Source: an uncultured Acidobacteriota bacterium
GTDB lineage: Bacteria > Acidobacteriota > Blastocatellia > Pyrinomonadales > Pyrinomonadaceae
NCBI GenBank assembly: GCA_963718105.1
Contig: OY970352.1
Location: 2,546,237 to 2,610,236 of the forward strand
Direction: 5' to 3'
Length of the DNA stretch: 64,000 bases
Under the pieces are notes generated by a model that ran no database searches, was not told where the DNA came from, and saw nothing but the letters and a program-made list of their open reading frames with translations. Shown here piece by piece: positions 2,056 to 49,706 of the stretch (positions are counted from its first letter, which is position 1; each line of letters begins with the position of its first letter). The position numbers and the translations under genes were made by a program.

Positions 2056-4443
2056 TTACGGAGTTGGGTTATCCGCACCGGCGGGCACTCTCCACAGGGT
2101 GGTTCTGATCGTGCCGTCTCCAGCGCCTCCATCGACTATGGTAATGCGGCTGGCGTCGAATTTACGGAAGGCGATATGGTTGTTGAACAATTTCACCAAG
2201 TCGTTCTTCTTCTTGCCGGCCGGGCCGTAGTAGATGATGTAACCGCGTGAATTCGGGTCATTCTGCAGTTCGACAAAGAAGTTGTCGAGACGCGCTCTGA
2301 CCTGATCGTGCGGAAGATCTCCGAACTCATCGGTCTTGATCGCCATTGGTCTGGCAACCGAACCCGTTTCAGATTGCGTTGACGGGCAACCCGGGCAGCA
2401 TCCGCCCACATCGACTGTGGCCGTAACGGTGCTGTTGTTTTCCATGCCGTTGGTGCTGACATGAATGACCGGGGTTCCCTGTCCGCTCGAAATGGTACCG
2501 GCGGAAACGCTCCAGTTATAGGTCGGGTTGCAGTTGGTGCCGCCGCTGACATTAGCCGTAAAGACCATGTCCTCGCCTGACTGAACTGCCGAACTCGGTC
2601 CCGTAACTGAGATCGTCGGGCATTCGCACGGCGGTTTTTTACAATCCGTGCATTCTTTGACCGTAATGGTCTTGGTCTGTGTTTTACCGCAAACACCGCA
2701 GCCGTCATCGACGCCGGCAGTGATGGTGTAGGTTCCGGGTCTGACACCCGCGAGGTCCCAATTCACATTGGCGCCCTGGCCTACGATACGTCCACCGGAA
2801 ACGGTGTAGTTGTAGATCAGAGTGTCATTTTCCGGATCGGCCGCCGACGTTCTCACGCTAACCGAAGATGATTCGGCGCAGCCCGTTCCCGCGATCTCTC
2901 CCGGAGGGCATCCCAGCGTGACTTCGGTGTCACCGACTTCAAGGTTGGTTACGTCAGCCGCTTTGTTAAGCACGGCCGGGGTTCCGCGAGAGTTACGTCT
3001 TCCGATCGTCGCCTGGAAGATATATCCATGCGGGTCGGTCGAGAACGGGAAGATACCCTGCAGATCCTGGAAGTTGAAAGTAGTAGTGATCGTCTGCGAT
3101 GCCGGGATACCCGCAGTCGGGTTAGCCGGACGCACGATAACTACAGACGACGTCGTTGTGTCGTCAAAGGCTTCCAGATCCTGCTCGTTAGCATTGTAGC
3201 GATACGCAAATCCAAGACTCATCCAGCGAGTCGGGAAAATGCGGAAACCTACCAAAGCATCCAGAGGATTGTTTTCCAGAGCGTTCGGTGTGCGGCCGCC
3301 TATATACCAGGTCTGGCGGATTTCGCCGATCGGCTGGAAAAACTTATTGACCGGGAAATCGAGGCCGATAGCGGTCTGCAGTTCATCGGGCCTGTCAAGC
3401 AAAGTGAAAGTTCCCGTCGGGTATTTAGCTTTCACGCTGCTGTTGTGAATAAGGCCAACGTTCGAAGAAAGGTTGAGCCATTTTCTCAAGCGCGCATCGG
3501 CAAAGAAGTAGACGCCGACGTCACCGCGGTTTCCACCGGGGCTGGAACCTCTCTGCAACTGGTTAAATCCGCCCAGGCTGCCTGCTCTGTCGGCATACCA
3601 GCGGTAAAAAGGAATGATACCCACGCCGACCGGATTGTTCGGGCCGGTCCATCTCCATTTCGCACCGGCGGTGAACGTGCTGAAAGCAGTCTCACCGTAG
3701 TGGCGATTAAGGAACGGGGCGTCCGGCAAATAAGCCGGCGAATTGGTGAACACCATCGGTGCCACGCCGCTCGGGTTCAAAGCGACCGTTCCCCAATAAA
3801 GGCCAGGCAGGATACTGCCGGCGGGCGAACCTACGCCCGGGAACTGAGCCGCGCCGTTGCCACTGTCGATCGGGTTACCAACCGAGGTGACAAACGGACC
3901 GTATTGTCCGGCGAAACCGCCGATATACGGATACTGCAGGAAAGGCTGTCTGCCGTCCGGACGGAAAATACCCTGTCCCTGAAGGTTAGGTATTCCCAGC
4001 GGAGCGATAATGATAGCTCCCGGAACCGCCAGTTGATTAAAGCCGTTGATAGGCACGATCAACTGGGAATTTGGCAGCCTGAAACCCGACAGATTCAGTG
4101 GTGAATTCACCTTCATCGCACGGTAAGCATCCGTGTTAAAGAAAAGCTCGAGGTGATCACTCACACCGATCTGGAAGCTGATCGGCACTTCGACGATATC
4201 AACATTGCCGGGATCACGGTCAAAATTGCTGTAAGCAATACTGAACGTGTATTCTCCCCGGCGAAGAGTTTGTCCGTCATAAACGGTAAAAAGACCTGTA
4301 GGGCCGCCTACGGGACCTCCCGTACCGACAGTCGGGGCGGTATTTCTGGGGTCATTCTCCGACCTCGGAGTCTGAGCCGATCCCACCCAAACCAGTGTAA
4401 ACATAGTTAGCGCTAAAGCTAGCGCTTGTTTCGCGAGTTTCAT
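2056..4443 (-). CDS. Secreted / outer-membrane hypothetical protein with Cys-rich Ig-like repeats
   Basis: ORF track gives 2056-4470. I prefer the ATG at 4443 (MKLAKQALALALTMFTLVWVGSAQ signal) because GGAGG lies 6 nt upstream. The N-terminal ~480 aa are Gly/aromatic-rich and beta-barrel-like. Two repeated Cys-rich modules follow (YNYTVSGGRIVGQG.., YNWSVSAGTISSGQG..). Confidence 0.75.
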   Translation of the reverse strand: MKLAKQALALALTMFTLVWVGSAQTPRSENDPRNTAPTVGTGGPVGGPTGLFTVYDGQTLRRGEYTFSIAYSNFDRDPGNVDIVEVPISFQIGVSDHLELFFNTDAYRAMKVNSPLNLSGFRLPNSQLIVPINGFNQLAVPGAIIIAPLGIPNLQGQGIFRPDGRQPFLQYPYIGGFAGQYGPFVTSVGNPIDSGNGAAQFPGVGSPAGSILPGLYWGTVALNPSGVAPMVFTNSPAYLPDAPFLNRHYGETAFSTFTAGAKWRWTGPNNPVGVGIIPFYRWYADRAGSLGGFNQLQRGSSPGGNRGDVGVYFFADARLRKWLNLSSNVGLIHNSSVKAKYPTGTFTLLDRPDELQTAIGLDFPVNKFFQPIGEIRQTWYIGGRTPNALENNPLDALVGFRIFPTRWMSLGFAYRYNANEQDLEAFDDTTTSSVVIVRPANPTAGIPASQTITTTFNFQDLQGIFPFSTDPHGYIFQATIGRRNSRGTPAVLNKAADVTNLEVGDTEVTLGCPPGEIAGTGCAESSSVSVRTSAADPENDTLIYNYTVSGGRIVGQGANVNWDLAGVRPGTYTITAGVDDGCGVCGKTQTKTITVKECTDCKKPPCECPTISVTGPSSAVQSGEDMVFTANVSGGTNCNPTYNWSVSAGTISSGQGTPVIHVSTNGMENNSTVTATVDVGGCCPGCPSTQSETGSVARPMAIKTDEFGDLPHDQVRARLDNFFVELQNDPNSRGYIIYYGPAGKKKNDLVKLFNNHIAFRKFDASRITIVDGGAGDGTIRTTLWRVPAGADNPTP

Positions 4444-14740: not shown

Positions 14741-15610
14741 GTGCTGGAAAGATTCGAATTTCAGGTTGCCCTTGAGGACCATAAAAAACGGCTGGAAGAT
14801 TTTCTGCTCGACCGGTTTCGCTCGCTCAGTAAAATGTATCTGCGCGAGGTGGTGAAAACTGAAAAATGCGAGGTCAACGGGAGGCTGGAAAATCGCGGCT
14901 ACCGGCTCAAGGCGAATGATTTTGTCGAGATCGAGCTGGACACTGCCCGCGAGCATTCGATGAAGCCGCAGAATATTCCCTTCGAAATAATTTTTGAAGA
15001 CGAAGAGCTTTTGGTGGTCAATAAAGCTTCGGGGATGCTCGTCCACCCGACGCACTGGGAAAAGAACGGCACTCTCTTAAACGCCATCACTTATCATTTA
15101 AATAGCGATAAAACAGATTTCATTCGCCCGGGTTTGGTCCACCGGCTGGATAAAGATACCTCAGGGCTGATCGTGATCGCCAAAACTTCGCGTGCCCACC
15201 GGATACTGGCCGATCATTTTCACCGGAAACTGGTCGAGAAACGCTACGCGGCTTTGGTTGGCGGGACCGTAAAAGAAGACGAAGGGACAATCGTTGCTCC
15301 CATCGGCCGCTTTGCCGAAGAAAAATTATGGAATATAAAGGCTGACGGGAAACCTGCCGAAACCCGCTTCCGCGTCGTCAAACGAAGCGAAGATCGGGCG
15401 CTGCTCGAATTAGAACCGGTCACCGGCAGAACCAATCAACTCCGAATTCACTGCGCCCATATCGGGCACCCGATCCTGGGAGATCACCGGTACAACGGGC
15501 GCGAATTCACTCGCCTTTGCCTGCACGCACAAAAGTTAAGTTTCTGGCATCCCAACGGAAACCAGTGGCTGGAGTTTGAAACCAAAATACCGGAAGAGCT
15601 TTGTCTCTAA
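14741..15610 (+). CDS. RluA-family 23S rRNA pseudouridine synthase (RluD/RluC-like, N-terminal S4-like domain)
   Basis: GTG start. Catalytic motif HRLDKDTSGLIVIAKT plus PVTGRTNQLRIH. Confidence 0.88.
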   Translation: MLERFEFQVALEDHKKRLEDFLLDRFRSLSKMYLREVVKTEKCEVNGRLENRGYRLKANDFVEIELDTAREHSMKPQNIPFEIIFEDEELLVVNKASGMLVHPTHWEKNGTLLNAITYHLNSDKTDFIRPGLVHRLDKDTSGLIVIAKTSRAHRILADHFHRKLVEKRYAALVGGTVKEDEGTIVAPIGRFAEEKLWNIKADGKPAETRFRVVKRSEDRALLELEPVTGRTNQLRIHCAHIGHPILGDHRYNGREFTRLCLHAQKLSFWHPNGNQWLEFETKIPEELCL

Positions 15611-37592: not shown

Positions 37593-38756
37593 ATGGATCA
37601 TACAACCCGCGAATTATTAAAACGCTACGCAAAACTGGCGATCGGACAGCCTTTTGCACCGATTCTGTTAAATATTCTGGTGACTTCGGTCTGCGATATG
37701 CGCTGTACACACTGCTTTTTTACCGACGAGCTGGACGACCGCCCGCGTAAAAAACTGCAGATGAAGACCCACGAGATCGATAAGATCGCGGAAACCCTCG
37801 GCGGCAACCTTGGTGTGCTGATACTGGCCGGCGGCGAACCGTTCACCCGCAAGGACCTGCCGGAAGTAGTAAATTCTTTCTATCGGCATAACAAACTGGA
37901 ATCGGTGTATCTGATGTCTAACGGGCAGATCCATCCGCGCATCTTCCCTGACGTAACGAGAATTCTGCAGGAAAACCCGAATCTCAATGTCACCGTCGCG
38001 CTGGGAATAGACGGCCTGAAAGACCAGCATGAAAAGATCCGCCAGAAAGAAGGTTCGTGGGACAAAGCTATTCATACAGCGCGCACGCTCAAGGAAATGA
38101 AGAAAGAATTTCCTAATCTGGACGTGCAAACCTGCACCTGCGTGATGAATTCCAACCAGGACACGATCTTTGATTGGTACGACTTTCTGAAATACGACCT
38201 CAAGCCGGACAAGATCAATATCAACTATATTCGTCCGCCGTCAAAAGACCCCAACGAACTCAATTTCGATCACGAGCGCTACGCTAAGCTTTCGCAGATG
38301 ATCCTTGACGACGTAAAGAATTCGGCGATCAAAAACAACTACGGCGGTTCGGCCGGTTTCTTTAAGGCGGCGATCGACATCTATATGCACGGCCTGATCA
38401 CCAAGACCAAGGAAGAACAGGCCCCGCAGATGAAGTGCTATGCCGGAACCGCCGGCGCCGTCATCTATGACGAAGGCACACTGTCGTCTTGCGAAAACAA
38501 AACGGAAGTTGCGAACCTGCGCGAGTTCGACTGGAACTTTAAGGCTGCCTGGAATTCACCGCAGATGAAACAGCGCCGCAAGGAAGTCGCCGACGGATGT
38601 TTCTGCACGCACGAATCGAACAGCTACTATCCGAGCCTGCCGTTTAACCCGGGCCATTTGATCCAGATCAAAAAACTGGAACGCCAAATGAAAAAGGCCG
38701 CCAAGCAGATCGACCAATCACAGCCGCAGGCGGATGGGCTGGCGGTCAAGGCCTGA
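37593..38756 (+). CDS. Radical SAM enzyme with C-terminal SPASM/twitch-like Cys cluster
   Basis: CX3CX2C motif in VTSVCDMRCTHCFF. GGEPF glycine-rich SAM motif. C-terminal CYAGTAGAVIYDEGTLSSC...GCFCTHE resembles the auxiliary Fe-S (SPASM/twitch) region. Confidence 0.8.
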   Translation: MDHTTRELLKRYAKLAIGQPFAPILLNILVTSVCDMRCTHCFFTDELDDRPRKKLQMKTHEIDKIAETLGGNLGVLILAGGEPFTRKDLPEVVNSFYRHNKLESVYLMSNGQIHPRIFPDVTRILQENPNLNVTVALGIDGLKDQHEKIRQKEGSWDKAIHTARTLKEMKKEFPNLDVQTCTCVMNSNQDTIFDWYDFLKYDLKPDKININYIRPPSKDPNELNFDHERYAKLSQMILDDVKNSAIKNNYGGSAGFFKAAIDIYMHGLITKTKEEQAPQMKCYAGTAGAVIYDEGTLSSCENKTEVANLREFDWNFKAAWNSPQMKQRRKEVADGCFCTHESNSYYPSLPFNPGHLIQIKKLERQMKKAAKQIDQSQPQADGLAVKA

Positions 38757-38761
38757 ACAAA

Positions 38762-39052
38762 ATGCTGACTTACAAAGCAATGTACAAATTTCTTGAAACA
38801 GGCGTCCATGGCGAGGTACTGGATTTTCCCGGTGTTATTACTTGCGGGAAAGACCTGGAAGAAACCCGTCAACTTTTATCTTCAGCCCTGGTCGATATGG
38901 CCGAGACAAATCTTGGTTTAGGAGAATCACTCCCAACTCCAGATTCTACTTTAAGCGATTCGGAAGCTGATCTGGAAGAACCTATTCATTTAGTTTTGAC
39001 TGCAACAACAAGAGTTAAGATCTCACCTGAAACTCACTATGAAGCGGCGTGA
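38762..39052 (+). CDS. hicB: HicB-family antitoxin
   Basis: 96 aa starting YKAMYKFLETGVHGEVLDFPGVITCGKDLEETRQLLSSALVDM, a UPF0150/HicB fold signature. Starts 6 nt after the radical SAM stop. Confidence 0.7.
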   Translation: MLTYKAMYKFLETGVHGEVLDFPGVITCGKDLEETRQLLSSALVDMAETNLGLGESLPTPDSTLSDSEADLEEPIHLVLTATTRVKISPETHYEAA

Positions 39053-39242
39053 TTTTTTACGTTATTTGGAAAGTAACGGATGTCATTTATTACGGGAAGG
39101 CGGCGGACATTCGATCTGGGAAAATCCGCGAACTAAAAATCGAACGGCAATTCCACGTCACAGGGAGATAGTTGATTACACGGCGGTAAAGATTTGCAAG
39201 CAGCTCGGCATCCAGAGTCCATTTGAAAAAAACAAAGACTAA
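39039..39242 (+). CDS. hicA: HicA-family mRNA interferase toxin
   Basis: 67 aa, MKRRDFLRYLESNGCHLLREGGGHSIWENPRTKNRTAIPRHREIVDYTAVKICKQLGI, matching the YcfA/HicA pattern. Overlaps hicB by 14 nt. Confidence 0.75.
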   Translation: MKRRDFLRYLESNGCHLLREGGGHSIWENPRTKNRTAIPRHREIVDYTAVKICKQLGIQSPFEKNKD

Positions 39243-43052: not shown

Positions 43053-43223
43053 AATATTTTACCTTATTGCCATTTTGTGTCAAGACCAAGCAGCGGTTTT
43101 TTGGGTTTTCCCGACAAAATCCTGCAATATTTTATATTTCAGAACGTTCGAGATAGTGTGAGTGAACGGTTTAGTCTTACCTGAGAGCGCGGGCATCTTG
43201 CCTGCAAGATCGATTACGGGTCA

Positions 43224-43291
43224 GTAGCGTCTGCGTCAGCAGATGCGTCTTCCGGAACGCAAAAGAACGCACTTGCTAACGCAAGCGCTAC
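43224..43291. repeat. Degenerate family B-like multi-hairpin repeat (copy 4)
   Basis: GTAGCG...CGCTAC outer stem encloses TCTGC-GTCA-GCAGA and CTTGC-TAAC-GCAAG hairpins. Similarity to copies 1-3 is weaker. Confidence 0.45.
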
Positions 43292-43312
43292 CGACAAAAC
43301 CGCTTGTAGCTT

Positions 43313-44140
43313 ATGCGGATCATAATTCTAACTTTCCTTGTCTTCTCTATCGGGATGATCTTCCCTTCCGCGTCTTTAGGGCCGGCGCGCGGGCAGGAAA
43401 AACAGCGCGGCTTTGCCCTCTACCTGCTTCCCGGCTCCATCAAGCCCCACCAACTTAAGGATCTCGATATCAGCAAGCTCAAGCCGGCCGGCGAGCCTCT
43501 CATTACCGCCGCCGATCTCCATTACTATCAAAAAGACCGGCACGAGCTGGCCCTCACTTACGACGCCGGAAAGCGTCTAAAAAATCAGGTGCTGGAGCTG
43601 CGTGGCAGGTCTTTTGTGGTTTTTGTCGATAACGAACCTATTTACACCGGCGCGTTCTGGCTATCGATCTGGTCCTCGAGCTTTGACGGCATCTATATCG
43701 ATCTCGCGGGCCCGACGAGCGATTTTCCGGTCTTTAAATTGGGATTGGGCTATCCAAAAAATTTTAAGAATCTCCCGGACGCGCGCCCTGATCCACGGAT
43801 CTTTGAGACTTTCGCGCGGGCGGGCCTTTTACAACAGGAATTATTTATCCGCGGTAAATGTAAAAAGATCTCCAACACCTACGCCCGCCGCCCGGGCGTG
43901 ATCTTCACTTTTTCGGTGGGCAAGGTGGTAAAAGGTGACTTCAGCGGCGCTGAAATTACGTTCAACACTTATGCGGACAACCAAGGAGCCCGGCTCCTGG
44001 GCGCCCTCGACGCCATCGGGGAGCTCTACGGTAAAGACGATTGGCAGTTCGACCCGGATAAGGAAATACTCCTGAAATTCGAACAGCGGCTTCCCGCGTC
44101 CACTCAGATACCATACTTCAGCAGCTTTGATGTTAATTGA
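43313..44140 (+). CDS. Hypothetical secreted protein
   Basis: 275 aa with signal peptide MRIIILTFLVFSIGMIFPSASLG. No family recognised. Confidence 0.65.
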   Translation: MRIIILTFLVFSIGMIFPSASLGPARGQEKQRGFALYLLPGSIKPHQLKDLDISKLKPAGEPLITAADLHYYQKDRHELALTYDAGKRLKNQVLELRGRSFVVFVDNEPIYTGAFWLSIWSSSFDGIYIDLAGPTSDFPVFKLGLGYPKNFKNLPDARPDPRIFETFARAGLLQQELFIRGKCKKISNTYARRPGVIFTFSVGKVVKGDFSGAEITFNTYADNQGARLLGALDAIGELYGKDDWQFDPDKEILLKFEQRLPASTQIPYFSSFDVN

Positions 44141-44375: not shown

Positions 44376-46796
44376 ATGGACGAATACACAGACCAGATGC
44401 CCCAGGACATAGCGCGTTTTCCCATGGTCCCTATCCGCGATGTGGTGATATTCCCTTTCACCAAGGTTGCGTTCAAGATCGGCCGCCCGAATTCGGTGCG
44501 CGCGCTGGAACACGCCCTGACCGGCGATCGTTATATCTTTCTCGCGACCCAGCACGATGCCACCATTGACGAGCCGACGCCCGACCAGGTTTACCAGATC
44601 GGCACTATCGGCCGCATCCTGCAAGCGCAGAAACAGGAGAACGGGCAGATAAAGGTCGTGGTCGAAGGCCGCGAACGCGCCACCACGATCAAGGTCGACC
44701 GGCAGGAAGACCTGTTGTATGCGACGGTCCGGCGGATCGTCTCCACCAATGAATCGGGTTACCGCACGGACGGGCTGCTGCAGAAACTGCACAACCTGGT
44801 CGAACAATTAATGCGTCTTTCTCCCGATGCTTATACGGATTCGCTGCACGCTTCGCTGCGCGGCACCATTCCGGCGCACATTGCCGATACCCTTTCGTCG
44901 CATCTGAAGGTGCCGGTCGAAGAAAAACAACTGCTGCTGGAGATCCCCTCGGTACAGGACCGCCTGCAAAAACTGATCGAAGTTCTGGAAATAGAGATCG
45001 ATAAAAAACAGCTCGACCGCCAGGTCCACACCCGCACCAAGCGGCAGATGGAAAAGGCGCAGCGCGAATATTATTTGAACGAACAGATCAAGGCCATCCA
45101 TAAAGAGCTCGGACGCAAAGACGAAAAAGCCGAGCTGGAAGAATTAAAAACAAAGATCGAAGAGGTCGGCATGACCGACGAAGCGAAAGAAAAAGCTCTG
45201 CAGGAACTTTCGCGGCTGGAAACGATGGCGCCGATGTCGGCCGAAAGCACCGTTTCGCGCACCTATATCGATTGGCTGGTGAACATTCCGTGGCAGGCGC
45301 GCTCTGAAGAGATCAACGATCTGAACAATGCCGAAGACATTTTGAACGAAGACCATCACGGGCTGGAAAAGATCAAGGAACGCATTTTGGAATACCTGGC
45401 CGTGCGGCAATTGGTAAAAAATCCCAAAGGCACGATCCTATGTTTTGTCGGCCCTCCGGGAGTAGGCAAAACCAGCCTGGGTAAATCGATCGCCCGCGCG
45501 ACGGGTAGAAAATTTGTTCGCTTCAGCTTGGGCGGCGTTCATGACGAAGCCGAGATACGCGGCCATCGCCGCACCTATATCGGTTCGCTGCCGGGGCAGA
45601 TCCTTCAGTTAATGAAGCGCGCCGGTACCGTTAATCCCGTGATGCTGCTCGACGAAGTCGATAAGCTCGGACACGATTTCCGCGGCGACCCGGCGGCGGC
45701 GCTTTTAGAAGTGCTCGACCCGGAACAGAATCATACTTTCCGCGATCACTATCTCGACGTCGATTACGACCTGTCGCAGGTGTTTTTTATCGCCACCTCG
45801 AACGTGCTGCATACTATTCCGCCGGCGCTCCAGGACAGGCTGGAAATAATTTCGCTGTCCGGTTACACCGAGAAAGAAAAGCTTCAGATCGCCAAGCGGC
45901 ATCTGATCCCGAAACAATCCGAAGGCAACGGCCTCGACCCGGAAAAGATCACTTTTACGGACGACGGCATCCTCGAAGTCATTCGCCACTATACGCGCGA
46001 AGCGGGCGTCCGCAGCCTGGAACGCCAGCTCGGCTCATGCCTGCGCAAAGTAGCGCGTAAATTTGTCGACGCCAAAGATAACAGTGACTTTCGCGAAGTC
46101 ATCTCCGCCGAGAAGGTGCGCGACCTGCTGGGTACTATCAAGTTCCGCAAACAGGACATCGCCCTGACCAGTGAGATCGGTTTGGTGAACGGGCTGGCCT
46201 GGACGGAAGTGGGCGGTGATATTTTGCAGATCGAAGCCACGCTGGTCAAAGGTAAAGGCGAGGTGCGCCTGACCGGAAAGCTCGGCGAAGTAATGCAGGA
46301 ATCGGCCCACACAGCGCTGACCTGTGTCCGCACCCGCGCGGAAAAACTCGGCATCGATACCGAGTTCATCCGGGAAAAAGACCTGCACATCCACGTGCCC
46401 GAAGGCGCTATTCCGAAAGACGGCCCTTCGGCCGGCATCACGATGGCCGTCGCGATGGTTTCTGCGCTGACAAACGTCGCTGTGCGCCACGATGTAGCGA
46501 TGACCGGTGAGATAACCCTGCGCGGCAAAGTTCTGCCCATCGGCGGCTTGAAAGAAAAACTTCTGGCGGCGCACCGCTTCGGAGTCAAGACCGTCATCAT
46601 TCCGAAAGACAACGAAAAAGACCTGGCCGACATTCCCGAAGAAGTTCTCGACGAAATGCAGATCCACCCGGTCGAGTCTATCGACGAGGTCCTGCAATAC
46701 GCGATGGATCACGAAAAAGTGGATATCACCGTCGATACCCCGCAAGTGTGGACGGGAGATCAGGCTTCGACGGATATAACGGCGGCGATAGAATAA
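44376..46796 (+). CDS. lon: ATP-dependent Lon protease (LonA)
   Basis: 806 aa. Walker [10 protein letters not shown], Walker B MLLDEVDK, catalytic Ser motif [12 protein letters not shown] and the Lys region LPIGGLKEK. Confidence 0.95.
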
Positions 46797-46879
46797 ATAA
46801 TCAGGAACGCTTCTTATCTTATTTCCAGATGCGTTTTCGCATGCCACTCGCTATTTTATGAACGTTGCCCGGATGCTTT

Positions 46880-48022
46880 TCATAAAACATTCCAACAGAT
46901 CTCAAAGGGGAAAAACCCTGAGGATAAAGCAATAGGAGATCGCAGGTATTTGGCTCCGCCTTTCAATACTGTTTTAACTTCATATTCAAGCTCCAGCGTA
47001 CGCTTCATTTCAACGGAAAGTTTAAAGGGAGCGGAACCAATTTCCGCTCCGATTCCCACACTGATATATCCGGTAGAACCTAACTTGGCGCCTTCCGTAT
47101 CACTGTCGGAATCATTGGCCGGCACCTTGGTTTTGTCAAAGGTCCCCCAAAATTGCGGCCTGGGCTTAGGATTTGCGGGCAATACATCAAGACAACTGTC
47201 TATCCCCGCAGGAATAGGGCGGGTTATGCGAGCGTCAGGATCGGCTTCCACCACGCGGTATCGCGTTCCGGATGCGACCGGCTTGCCATCCACCAGGGTC
47301 GTGCCGTGTTCAACTACCAGTTTCGCCGGAATTGCTTCCTCTTTGCATATCGAACCGGCCTGAATTTTGGTCGACATTTGAGTAGTAAAACCCAATCCGC
47401 CCCCGCCTTTTAAACCGGCAAATTCATACTGAGTGTCGGTCTCGACTTTCTCAGTGGTGGTGATCGTGGCCTCGGCGGTGCAACCGGCAAGATGAGGCCG
47501 ATGAATGCGAAAAAGTGGAAGATAGATTGGTATTACCCAATCAGGAGTGTTTGGGTCTCGTTTGAATTCAACCTCTACCGTACTTAAAAAATAAAATCCT
47601 TTATATAACTTTGAATTGGCCACATAAAAAGGACGCGAAGAGCCTGAACCCTGTTCGTTACTAAACCCATAATACTTATCAGGGTATTGGCTCAAAAACA
47701 ATCCCTGATCGGCAATTTCTCCTCCTACTCCCAAAAGAACTTGTCCAAGACCTTTTGTCTGTTTTTTTTCGATTCGGCCTATATAGCGAGCTCCCCAATC
47801 AGAATTAAGGGTTAACTCCGCTTCCTGCCCCGTAATCTGAATTTGGCTCAGTGAACCTACCGCGGCCTTTGCGTATTTTTTCGTAAGATGCGAATTTTCG
47901 ATCTTAGTTATTTCAACTTTTATCCCGTCTCGAGTTTTTGGAATTTTGCTTTCGTCATCTTGTCTTACAAGCGTTAAGATCGTTTGCTTATCGCGACAAG
48001 GAATTTCCCACATCTCGGTCAT
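46880..48022 (-). CDS. Hypothetical beta-rich 380-aa protein without signal peptide; candidate aerolysin/ETX-MTX2-like pore-forming fold
   Basis: GGAG RBS and AT-rich codon usage. The central segment ATITTTEKVETDTQYEFAGLKGGGGLGFTTQMSTKIQAGS is an alternating Ser/Thr-rich two-strand stretch around a Gly turn. No family recognised with certainty. Confidence 0.7.
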   Translation of the reverse strand: MTEMWEIPCRDKQTILTLVRQDDESKIPKTRDGIKVEITKIENSHLTKKYAKAAVGSLSQIQITGQEAELTLNSDWGARYIGRIEKKQTKGLGQVLLGVGGEIADQGLFLSQYPDKYYGFSNEQGSGSSRPFYVANSKLYKGFYFLSTVEVEFKRDPNTPDWVIPIYLPLFRIHRPHLAGCTAEATITTTEKVETDTQYEFAGLKGGGGLGFTTQMSTKIQAGSICKEEAIPAKLVVEHGTTLVDGKPVASGTRYRVVEADPDARITRPIPAGIDSCLDVLPANPKPRPQFWGTFDKTKVPANDSDSDTEGAKLGSTGYISVGIGAEIGSAPFKLSVEMKRTLELEYEVKTVLKGGAKYLRSPIALSSGFFPFEICWNVL

Positions 48023-48120
48023 ATTATTTCTCCATTGGAATCACTTCGTTTGGCGGCAGCTTATGTAAACGAAGAATTCATCGCAGGCATTCTGAGCAAC
48101 CGTCGTATTTATTGGCGCAA

Positions 48121-48208
48121 AGCTGAGAACTTGGGAGTTCGAGGCTTCGTGAGAAAACTCAGGTAAAAACTATGCGGCTAATTTATTCTCAAACCGAATT
48201 ATTGTCAA
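48121..48208 (-). promoter_or_regulatory. Promoter (TTGACA-17-TAAATT) plus conserved ~50-nt leader, copy 1 (drives the 380-aa gene)
   Basis: On the minus strand, TTGACA is at 48208-48203 and TAAATT at 48185-48180. The leader 48172-48121 aligns with 48926-48875. Confidence 0.6.
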
Positions 48209-48284
48209 TAGAAATTTTTACAGAACAAACCCGTCTGCGGCCGCTTGCTCCGCGGACGGTCATAATCAAATAATTAAGCCCAGG

Positions 48285-48836
48285 TTATTTCGTTGTCGTC
48301 TCTTTCGGATTATGATCGCGGTAATCCAGGAAGTCGTACCCGACATTGGCGGCGAGGAGCATCCACATTATGATCGTCCCCAGCGGGGTAATATATTCGA
48401 TGTCGTGAATTCCCTTGTCGCGCCCCATATAAAAGCTGATCGCGCCGAACACCAGGTAGAACAGGATCACAAAACAGACGGATATAAGCGTCGGCAAAAC
48501 GATCTCTTTTCCACCGACATTGTTATAGGTAAAGGAAAAAAATCCGGCCGTAACTCCCGCCGCCAGGATTGATAAAATTCCGATGGCCGAAGAATATGCC
48601 GGTGGCGTTTTACCGGCGGCTGTCACATTTGGCGTCTCAGAGATCAGCAGGAAGAAACCCAGCGCGGCCAGCAGCGTGCCGAACATCCCAAACGCTGCGC
48701 ACAAATAATACTTCCATTTGGATGATTTGTTCTCAAAATCTATTTTTCTCCCGTCTTCTCTAAAGAAGATAGCCCGCGCCACAATAGCGGCTACCCCGAA
48801 AAAACATCCTACTAATACAAGAGCAAAACCACCCAT
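48285..48836 (-). CDS. Hypothetical 5-TM membrane protein (183 aa)
   Basis: GGAGGTG RBS. Five hydrophobic segments (FALVLVGCFFGVAAIV, YYLCAAFGMFGTLLAALGFFLLI, AIGILSILAAGVTAGFFSF, LPTLISVCFVILFYLVFGAISFY, LGTIIMWMLLAANVGY). No family recognised. Confidence 0.7.
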   Translation of the reverse strand: MGGFALVLVGCFFGVAAIVARAIFFREDGRKIDFENKSSKWKYYLCAAFGMFGTLLAALGFFLLISETPNVTAAGKTPPAYSSAIGILSILAAGVTAGFFSFTYNNVGGKEIVLPTLISVCFVILFYLVFGAISFYMGRDKGIHDIEYITPLGTIIMWMLLAANVGYDFLDYRDHNPKETTTK

Positions 48837-48874
48837 TTTTCACCTCCAAAGTGCAACAATGTGATTGTGATATG

Positions 48875-48960
48875 AAGCTTGAGAACCAGGGAGTTCAGGC
48901 TTCGCGGGAAAACTCGGGAAACTATATAAATAATTTATTTGGAAATAGAGTGATTGTCAA
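48875..48960 (-). promoter_or_regulatory. Promoter (TTGACA-17-TAAATT) plus conserved leader, copy 2 (drives the 5-TM gene)
   Basis: On the minus strand, TTGACA is at 48960-48955 and TAAATT at 48937-48932. Hexamers and spacing are the same as in copy 1. Confidence 0.6.
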
Positions 48961-48996
48961 TAACTTTAAAAGCGGTGCTGCCTGAATATATCAAAC

Positions 48997-49075
48997 CTTC
49001 GGAAAAGATGAGAGATGATAGCTGAGTGAGTCGATCTATAATCTGTCATCTATCAGTTATCATCTATTCCGAATG
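48997..49075. repeat. MITE-like repeat, family D copy 2
   Basis: ...GATGATAGCTGAGTGAGTCGATCTATAATCTGTCATCTATCAGTTATCATCTATTCCGAATG aligns along its length with 56021-56107. Confidence 0.8.
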
Positions 49076-49178
49076 ACGATCTTATGAACCTCACAGCTTT
49101 TTAGAACATCAAATCCGTGGCGCTTTAAGGTTGTTTAAGCTGCGAAACACTCACGCGCTCCTTGCGCGCTCCATACAC

Positions 49179-49580
49179 CTAGCTGATCTGCTGCATCAAA
49201 CCGGCAAAATCGACCTGGCACCAGTGCTCTGTCAGCCGGCCGTTTTTGACGGTCAGGATATCGATCACGTCGATATGGATCGGGCGGCCGGTCGGCGCCG
49301 CTCCGAAAAATTCGCCGGTGTGTTCGCCAAAGAAACTTTTTCGGGTGACGACCTTATCGCCTTCGGCCACCTGGTCATATACTTCCGCCCGGAAGCCTGA
49401 GAAAGCGCCGCGCAGCATCTTGAACAGATTTTTCACGCCCTCTTTGTCCGGCGTCAGGCCGGGCAGCGCGGAGTGGTCGACAAAATCATCCGCCAGCAAT
49501 TCCTCCGCCACCTCTTCGCGGGCATCCGTCTGGTATTCGCTGATAAAGCGGCTGACTATATCTTTATTTTCCGTTGACAT
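49179..49580 (-). CDS. SnoaL-like / predicted ester cyclase family protein
   Basis: The ATG at 49580 is preceded by GGGGAG. NKDIVSRFISEY...DDFVDHSALPG...FRAEVYDQVAEGDKVVTR..HTGEF.G..PTGR......DILTVKNGRLTEHW follows the ester cyclase (NTF2-like) pattern. Confidence 0.65.
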   Translation of the reverse strand: MSTENKDIVSRFISEYQTDAREEVAEELLADDFVDHSALPGLTPDKEGVKNLFKMLRGAFSGFRAEVYDQVAEGDKVVTRKSFFGEHTGEFFGAAPTGRPIHIDVIDILTVKNGRLTEHWCQVDFAGLMQQIS

Positions 49581-49706
49581 TAAATTTCTCCCCAAAAATT
49601 GGACTCGCGCACAAATTCGCTCGGCAAACTAAAACGGTTTCAAAAATCTTCATTTGACATAAGGCCGTGCGAAAGCTAAGTTTTGAAAAACCTTTAAGGA
49701 GTACCT

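Follow-up and report, generated by a model that had tools for sequence, protein, structure and literature searches.

Whether two neighbouring genes, one encoding a beta-rich protein with an amphipathic hairpin and the other a small membrane protein, form a functional pair is the question raised by a locus in an uncultured bacterium of the Pyrinomonadaceae (Acidobacteriota; assembly GCA_963718105.1, contig OY970352.1). We analysed a 64-kb window of this contig (64,000 nt), whose positions are used throughout. Between lon and a SnoaL-family gene it carries two open reading frames (ORFs) for proteins of 380 and 183 amino acids (aa), the latter referred to here as the five-transmembrane (5-TM) protein. 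A preliminary description had taken them for an AT-rich island in which an intracellular pore former, perhaps of the aerolysin/ETX-MTX2 or gasdermin type, is joined to a membrane partner in a toxin/immunity or anti-phage module. We conclude that the 380-aa gene stands alone: it is an accessory gene that was acquired horizontally and occupies a hypervariable slot beside lon, and, as found in this window, it is the founding member of a rare, undescribed family of leaderless all-beta proteins; the 5-TM protein is a conserved lineage-specific backbone protein and not its functional partner.

The slot beside lon and its cargo

The ORF list and Pfam confirmed the arrangement as first described: lon (44376-46796, +) is convergent to the 380-aa ORF (46880-48022, -), which is followed by the 183-aa membrane protein ORF (48285-48836, -) and the SnoaL-family gene (49179-49595, -; Pfam E 3.7e-32). 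The composition of the two ORFs differs. With a GC content of 0.465 and a GC content at third codon positions (GC3) of 0.428, the 380-aa gene has the lowest GC3 of the 42 window genes (mean 0.614, z = -2.9), whereas the 183-aa gene is ordinary by the same measure (GC3 0.576, z = -0.6) and belongs to the conserved backbone, so that of the supposed AT-rich two-gene island only the first gene is deviant.

In an exact-sequence cluster look-up, Lon falls into a cluster of >=90% identity with an endopeptidase La of a Pyrinomonadaceae bacterium (HEV7645807.1), which makes the host of the window a Pyrinomonadaceae-like acidobacterium. Sister loci, all Pyrinomonadaceae-like, were retrieved through the orthologues of Lon and of the 5-TM protein. 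They comprise a metagenome-assembled genome from ENA (L008), a JGI contig and GCA_035995185.1 (L009, L010), a 744-kb JGI contig and a Logan contig (L011, L012), and two short contigs (L013, L014). In blastn comparisons with L008, L009, L011 and L013, homology ends precisely with the stop codon of lon (46796) and restarts at 48120-48131, or, in the blastn and alignment of L011, at 48301; the window-specific DNA is therefore the segment 46797-48119, which consists of the 380-aa ORF, its 3' untranslated region and the unique part of its 5' untranslated region. The flanks of the slot, lon and the 5-TM gene, are fixed, and at least five different cargo states were found between them among close relatives. 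The slot is empty in L011 and L012, with 85 nt from the 5-TM gene to lon; it holds the 380-aa gene in the window, a 419-aa polytopic membrane orphan in L009 and L010, a 365-aa Cys-rich orphan with a 148-aa ORF in L008, a set of 115-aa, YtxH-like and 328-aa genes in L013, and in L014 a tandem paralogue of the 5-TM protein (3130-3612, +; 40% identity, BLASTP E 1e-35). Among the alternative cargos, membrane and secreted proteins are in the majority; the cargos are mutually unrelated and, except for the YtxH protein, orphans. The low GC3, the blastn breakpoints, the empty site of L011/L012 and the unrelated cargos in L008, L009/L010, L013 and L014 together establish the cargo status of the 380-aa gene.

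The 5-TM gene behaves differently. It adjoins the SnoaL gene in every sister genome retrieved (L008 to L014), its orthologues being 81-89% identical in L009, L010, L011, L012 and L013 and the L014 copy 56% identical, and it is seen with five other slot states, the empty one included. Its family is confined to this lineage, with five relatives only among 5.8 billion clusters. Loci of the 380-aa family elsewhere (L001, L003, L007, L015, L016) have no 5-TM homologue and no common neighbour, and an all-versus-all BLAST of every ORF within 3.5 kb on either side of six family loci found nothing shared except the family gene itself. Because the 5-TM gene is present in all sisters, stands alone beside lon in L011/L012, and the family loci lack a common neighbour, the pair is positional and not functional; the co-occurrence check thus found no conserved pairing and refutes a two-gene module of pore former and partner, be it toxin/immunity or effector/receptor. 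The two genes are 262 nt apart and the gap holds a full second TTGACA-17-TAAATT promoter; the layout is not that of a single transcription unit or of translational coupling, and co-regulation through paralogous promoters and leaders is possible. The hydropathy of the 183-aa protein bears out its description as a 5-TM protein: four segments are strongly hydrophobic and a fifth, at about residues 147-167, is weaker. In L008 the gene (14991-15546, -) is split into ORFs of 104 and 112 aa by an apparent frameshift or assembly error, and from this copy the 5-TM gene may be dispensable. We also considered lon as a linked activating protease and rejected the idea, because it is the conserved housekeeping gene found there in all strains, irrespective of what the slot contains.

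A repeat search showed that ~85 nt upstream of one window gene are paralogous to a stretch upstream of the other, with a cargo-side copy at 48125-48210 (-; nhmmer E 3.7e-22) and a backbone copy before the 5-TM gene at 48882-48962 (-; nhmmer E 4.8e-20). Each block comprises, as predicted by a promoter scan, the promoter TTGACA-17-TAAATT and then a leader with the imperfect palindrome GAAGC..GAAC-N6-GTTC..GCTTC. According to nhmmer, the backbone copy is present in all sister loci, the empty site included, and copy number follows the occupancy of the slot: one copy at the empty site of L011/L012 (L011, 6836-6916), one in L014 (2319-2393) and two wherever the cargo is foreign (L008, 14330-14413 and 15635-15715; L009, 13831-13908 and 15043-15116; L013, 756-838 and 2046-2129). 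A cargo-side copy precedes each of the unrelated cargos of the window, L008, L009/L010 and L013, i.e., four of the five occupied arrangements, and these cargo-side copies are closer to each other than to the backbone copies. Within the window the block is confined to this locus (nhmmer), and the 380-aa family occurs elsewhere without it. The 380-aa gene is thus predicted to be driven by a duplicated copy of the putative sigma70-type promoter and leader of the 5-TM gene. Since the cargo-side copies are mutually alike and L014 carries a tandem paralogue, the arrangement suggests that the slot originated by tandem duplication of a unit of promoter/leader and 5-TM gene, after which the second ORF was replaced by foreign genes. 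Rfam gave no match on 46700-49300, and RNAalifold on 10 leader copies returned a hairpin with almost no covariation; the palindrome may be an RNA element or a DNA operator, and the covariation of the hairpin does not favour either.

Several further observations concern the surroundings of the slot. A 137-aa ORF (46950-47363, +) lies antisense within the 380-aa gene, and its BLAST matches are antisense ORFs in L001 and L003; it was rejected as a separate gene because it reflects the conserved coding sequence of the sense strand. A 21-nt stretch in the 3' end of lon (46754-46774, GGGAGATCAGGCTTCGACGGA) is 86% identical to part of the leader (48889-48909, GGGAGTTCAGGCTTCGCGGGA), probably by chance, since it lies within conserved lon coding sequence. 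Across lon there is a second strain-specific insertion (43165-44048), holding a 275-aa ORF (43313-44140, +) with a signal-peptide-like N-terminus (MRIIILTFLVFSIGMIFPSASLG), no Pfam match and a cluster size of 1; this orphan is absent from L008, L009 and L011, which have only ~80 nt at its position, and, as it and the 380-aa cargo flank lon, lon is bordered on both sides by variable orphan genes. Farther away, the interval between a radical-SAM (S-adenosylmethionine) gene and a gene similar to monogalactosyldiacylglycerol synthase holds a HicB/HicA toxin-antitoxin pair in L008 and L009, and the corresponding interval of the window (38755-39242, ~490 nt) has no nucleotide homology to L008 or L009.

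The 380-aa family and the predicted fold of its conserved domain

The 380-aa protein has no match in Pfam, NCBIfam, PADLOC, PHROGs or among PDB sequences, the family profile also finds no PDB sequence, and an hmmscan of 42 family members against Pfam-A returned no consistent family even at E <= 10; weak matches to TafE (NCBIfam) and to DUF6057 and DUF7937 (Pfam) were rejected as far below the cut-offs. Relatives are few. A word-indexed search found two, at ~45% identity, and a word-index profile search with alignment A2 gave 2 proteins; an exhaustive phmmer search of 1.84 billion representatives yielded 61 clusters, of which 40 reach E <= 1e-10, and all cover residues ~140-380. A metagenome scan contributed two family loci, including L016. 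Searches with patterns from alignments A1 and A4 found no relative in GTDB species genomes, and the same alignments found none in IMG/VR viral contigs, which leaves a phage origin unsupported. The family is sporadic, ranging over Acidobacteriota-like sequences, Amycolatopsis and metagenomes, and its named members are all annotated as 'hypothetical protein', among them WP_268755367.1 from Amycolatopsis cynarae, a monoderm actinomycete. The closest homologue (P0003) lies in an identical orphan block in two independent samples (L001, 2819-8680; L002, 539-6400), with products of 419, 154/86, 78, [347] and 406 aa and a DUF4238 gene; the block has no PADLOC match and in L001 adjoins a weak AbiTii match, ISL3 and rve transposases and an integrase, a context that looks like an accessory or mobile island. 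The homologues P0004, P0008 and P0010 lie on contigs of 1-2 kb.

The hydropathy of the 380-aa protein agrees with the earlier remark that it has no signal peptide: the maximum over 19 residues on the Kyte-Doolittle scale is 1.08, the N-terminus is acidic and polar, and neither a signal peptide nor a transmembrane segment is apparent. A signal-peptide-like hydrophobic stretch at the N-terminus was found in none of the 56 aligned family members, and the 19-residue Kyte-Doolittle transmembrane cut-off is exceeded anywhere in only 3 of the 56 (P0034, P0047, P0056). The protein divides into a variable N-terminal region (aa 1-127; 47642-48022, -), made up of a small beta domain and a Gly-rich insertion, and a conserved C-terminal domain (aa ~140-380; 46883-47605, -), delimited by phmmer coverage and by the AlphaFold2 domain model. 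In the family the N-terminal ~100-180 residues are poorly conserved (alignments A1 and A2), and the Gly-rich insertion (aa ~88-127) occurs only in the window protein, where the predicted local distance difference test (pLDDT) falls below 50 at residues 100-127. A ten-repeat match of P0036 to residues 73-132 was rejected: this protein is an adhesin with immunoglobulin-like repeats of the type IX secretion system, it shows 25% identity, and its E-value is inflated because the repeats are identical.

The C-terminal domain carries the signature LP-x-x-R-x-H-(R/C)-P-x3-G-C ... G-x-GGGGG ... C-x-E-x2-(V/I)-P-A ... D-x-C ... E-x-C-W. Three residues, P169, H174 and P176, never vary, and R172, C181, C226, D275, C277, E374 and W377 are conserved in at least 90% of members; the near-invariant residues R172, H174, P176, G180, C181, C226, D275 and C277 span 47192-47503 (-), and the codons of E374, C376 and W377 are found within 46892-46903 (-). 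About one member in five has a hydrophobic residue in place of C376. One homologue, P0046, has lost C181, C226, D275 and C277 together, and this joint loss suggests that the four work as one unit. As C181 and C226 flank both ends of the first long hairpin, they should be adjacent in the fold, and from the secondary-structure topology the His/Cys cluster would sit at the base of the hairpins.

This first hairpin corresponds to the segment that had drawn attention at the outset, ATITTTEKVETDTQYEFAGLKGGGGLGFTTQMSTKIQAGS (aa 185-224; 47351-47470, -), an amphipathic hairpin around a G-x-GGGGG turn. The Ser/Thr-rich hairpin is indeed there, and it is conserved: across the family, hydrophobic and polar residues alternate at 195-204 and 210-222 around G203-x-GGGGG, G203 being kept in 93% and positions 205-209 in 67-81% of members. 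The segment is modelled as a hairpin of 20 and 19 residues. All long strands of the protein are amphipathic likewise, however, e.g., 322-328 and 331-339, so the property is neither special to this hairpin nor diagnostic of membrane insertion.

AlphaFold2 modelled the full-length protein as almost all beta (pLDDT 79.5, predicted template modelling score (pTM) 0.74), in agreement with its description as beta-rich. A domain-only model (residues 128-380, built on the 56-sequence alignment) reached pLDDT 88 and pTM 0.77 and is dominated by three very long hairpins, 182-201/204-222, 227-244/247-258 and 305-328/331-354, with strands of 12-24 residues. Searched against the PDB with Foldseek, the domain model gave 13 matches at E <= 1e-3 (1.4e-5 to 1e-3), every one of them to a secretin subunit: RcpA (E 1.4e-5), pIV of phage f1 (E 2e-5, probability 1.0), PilQ, PulD, InvG, XcpQ and the type II secretin 8co1. 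Secretins, GspD included, make up 27 of the 31 top PDB matches, and the alignments extend over 212-308 columns and thus over the whole 253-aa domain. Secretin subunits are built as two-layer sheets with a hydrophobic interface between the layers, four-stranded outer and inner sheets forming a double-walled barrel (PMC8563730). A two-layer, secretin-like sheet would explain why every long strand is amphipathic, and on this explanation the amphipathicity of the flagged hairpin is in itself no evidence of membrane insertion. The protein may share the architecture of secretins, but its sequence, domain set and gene context, the type of the host envelope and the lack of an export signal all set it apart from the secretin family.

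Possible functions of the 380-aa protein

An oligomeric beta-barrel or pore role for the 380-aa protein is plausible on the predicted fold, and we tentatively favour, at somewhat under an even chance, a mechanism in which the secretin-like C-terminal domain would oligomerise and act on the membrane from inside, under the control of the N-terminal domain and the His/Cys cluster. The C-terminal domain would be a two-layer module of long hairpins whose copies line up laterally to form a ring or beta-barrel. As the protein has no export signal, the pore would form from the cytoplasmic side, as it does with the gasdermin, Pepco and EACC1 effectors; the variable N-terminal domain might serve as sensor or autoinhibitor, and the His/Cys cluster as a metal or redox clasp on the bases of the hairpins. 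Several results weigh against this mechanism. The full-length model has no significant Foldseek match in the PDB or BFVD, and the template modelling scores (TM-scores) of the domain to secretins are low (0.13-0.26, root-mean-square deviation 14-19 A); generic 3Di matching among long beta-meanders may also be involved. In hhalign, the 56-sequence profile scored a probability of 0.06% against a six-sequence alignment of pIV homologues (M13, IKe, VFJ, Vibrio phage), GspD and HofQ. A soluble two-layer sandwich accounts for the amphipathic pattern just as well, and known pore formers are less typical carriers of a near-invariant His/Cys/Asp cluster than are proteins with a metal or catalytic site. 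The genomic setting of the homologues is divided: the mobile or accessory context of L001 with its weak AbiTii match counts in favour of the mechanism, but in L007 and L016 the homologue stands among housekeeping genes (FMO, M55 peptidase, cyclase, 5'-3' exonuclease) and not in a defence island, and PADLOC matched neither the 380-aa protein nor any neighbour or alternative cargo tested.

The main rival of the favoured mechanism, which we regard as somewhat less likely than it, is a reading without a pore. The protein might be a soluble two-layer beta-sandwich whose His/Cys3/Asp/Glu cluster binds a metal or is catalytic; its role would then be that of an enzyme, of a sensor for metal or redox state, or of a binding protein. 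Conservation is strongest at R172, H174, P176, C181, C226, D275, C277, E374 and W377 and not on the faces of the hairpins, the joint loss of four of these residues in P0046 suggests one functional unit, the core of a sandwich would be expected to make every strand amphipathic, the TM-scores to pore proteins are low, and several family loci lie in housekeeping neighbourhoods. Yet no enzyme or lectin fold is included among the significant Foldseek matches, neither Pfam nor the PDB offers a sequence relation, strands of 20-24 residues are unusual in compact enzymes, and the sporadic distribution in hotspot and mobile contexts fits accessory genes of the conflict type. Among His/Cys enzymes considered as candidates, sortases, L,D-transpeptidases and caspase-like proteins were rejected, the motif spacing and fold being unfit and an HMM or fold match lacking. 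A bolder extension of the pore idea, which we consider improbable, would make the family a leaderless relative of the secretin fold, distributed over diderm Acidobacteriota and monoderm Actinomycetota, that forms giant gated beta-barrels in the cytoplasmic membrane and serves as a stand-alone effector of suicide, lysis or release, the variable N-terminal domain and, at the hairpin bases, a metal or redox clasp of Cys3-His keeping it shut.

Two other explanations start from the neighbourhood of the gene. The slot might be an expression platform under a stress-responsive promoter or operator for a number of interchangeable proteins of stress response or envelope protection; the 380-aa protein would be one of these and no toxin at all. 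The same palindromic promoter/leader stands before the 5-TM gene and the cargos, a YtxH-like general-stress protein is part of the L013 set, membrane and secreted proteins predominate among the alternative cargos, and the slot adjoins lon. This is distinctly improbable in our estimation, as the block is confined to the one locus in the window, the 380-aa family occurs in unrelated genomes without it, the cargos are unrelated to each other and, the YtxH protein apart, orphans, and the platform comes without a known regulator or inducing condition. Least probable of all, and very improbable, is the original proposal of an aerolysin/ETX-MTX2 pore-forming toxin with a 5-TM immunity or receptor partner in a toxin/immunity or anti-phage module. 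Hairpin 195-222 is amphipathic and Ser/Thr-rich with a Gly-rich turn, aerolysin, epsilon-toxin and Clostridium perfringens enterotoxin (CPE) recur among the weak Foldseek matches, and the near-identical promoters and leaders make co-regulation of the two genes probable. Against it, the 5-TM gene is kept with other cargos, with its own paralogue or with no cargo, its five relatives are restricted to this lineage while the 380-aa family lives elsewhere without it, ETX_MTX2, Aerolysin and Gasdermin are missing from the Pfam matches of the 42 members at E <= 10, and the Foldseek scores fall well below those of the secretin matches.

If the secretin-like fold and oligomerisation of the favoured mechanism are true, secretin architecture would no longer be limited to the export machines of the outer membrane but would include leaderless proteins and reach bacteria that lack this membrane, and gasdermin, Pepco and EACC1, the few intracellular beta-barrel effectors, would be joined by a new family. 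Were the giant-barrel version true, it would be a second independent solution, beside gasdermins, to building a giant beta-barrel from within, with a possible evolutionary link to secretins. Whatever the function, the locus is a clean natural cargo slot, in which a conserved duplicated promoter/leader stands before different foreign ORFs in close strains, and it is useful for learning how the Acidobacteriota, a phylum with almost no genetics, capture orphan accessory genes and express them. It also illustrates that adjacency to a gene for a membrane protein does not amount to partnership, a question decided here by three sister genomes and one empty site.

Comparison with known systems

The secretin C-terminal domain (PF00263; GspD/PulD, PilQ, InvG, RcpA, pIV) is the sole significant structural match of the conserved domain. 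The two are alike in size (~230-250 aa), in their long antiparallel all-beta hairpins, in Gly-rich or conserved-Gly turns and in amphipathic strands, which are consistent with a two-layer arrangement like that of the barrel walls (PMC8563730). The 380-aa family differs in that it has no sequence relation to secretins (by Pfam for the 42 members and by hhalign, as given above), no Sec signal and no N0/N3-type domains evident from the predicted secondary structure, and secretins in turn lack the His/Cys cluster. One of its members comes from a monoderm actinomycete, a bacterium lacking an outer membrane, and no genes of type II or type III secretion systems, type IV pili, Tad (tight adherence) pili or filamentous-phage assembly lie near the window gene or near its homologues in L001, L003, L007 and L016.

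With the aerolysin/ETX-MTX2 toxins (PF01117, PF03318) the protein shares an elongated all-beta form, long strands and a Ser/Thr-rich amphipathic hairpin, as well as weak but recurrent Foldseek matches to proaerolysin, epsilon-toxin and CPE. In the full-length search, aerolysin, epsilon-toxin and CPE take ranks 28-45 (E 0.3-0.5), and in the domain search aerolysins come after the secretins (E 0.04-0.14); across both models the probability does not exceed 0.23 nor the TM-score 0.14. The classical toxins are secreted whereas the 380-aa protein is leaderless, the conserved His/Cys cluster and the Gly5 turn are not features of aerolysins, and neither the window protein nor the 42 members match PF01117, PF03318, another family of the aerolysin clan or Gasdermin in Pfam at E <= 10. 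With insignificant Foldseek scores (E 0.04-0.5), no hidden Markov model match and no leader, the assignment to aerolysin/ETX-MTX2 finds no support.

Leaderless intracellular effectors that form beta-barrel pores do exist, as Pepco and EACC1 demonstrate (PMC12642450). Like these and the bacterial gasdermins, the 380-aa family is leaderless, sporadic and accessory, would act on the membrane from inside and is predicted to combine a variable or inhibitory N-terminal part with an oligomerising beta-sheet part. It differs from them in having no sequence match and no gasdermin in the top 50 Foldseek PDB matches, and in lacking an adjacent protease or sensor gene in any family locus; Pepco (117 aa) and EACC1 are also much smaller. 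Identity with a bacterial gasdermin, which PADLOC, Pfam and Foldseek all fail to detect, is likewise not upheld, and by its sequence the family is not aerolysin/ETX-MTX2, gasdermin or canonical secretin. The broader idea of a pore former loses its aerolysin type and its partner, but the leaderless sequence, the long amphipathic hairpins and the secretin matches are compatible with it.

The slot itself resembles the variable accessory-gene hotspots at fixed chromosomal positions in its fixed flanks, its empty site, its several cargo states and the atypical composition of its cargo. It differs from them in that neither an integrase nor an att site nor the edge of a mobile element could be detected, in that the cargos sit behind a conserved duplicated promoter/leader block, and in that one state is a tandem paralogue of a flanking gene. 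Together, these differences suggest a duplication and the later replacement of an ORF as the origin of the slot, and not site-specific integration.

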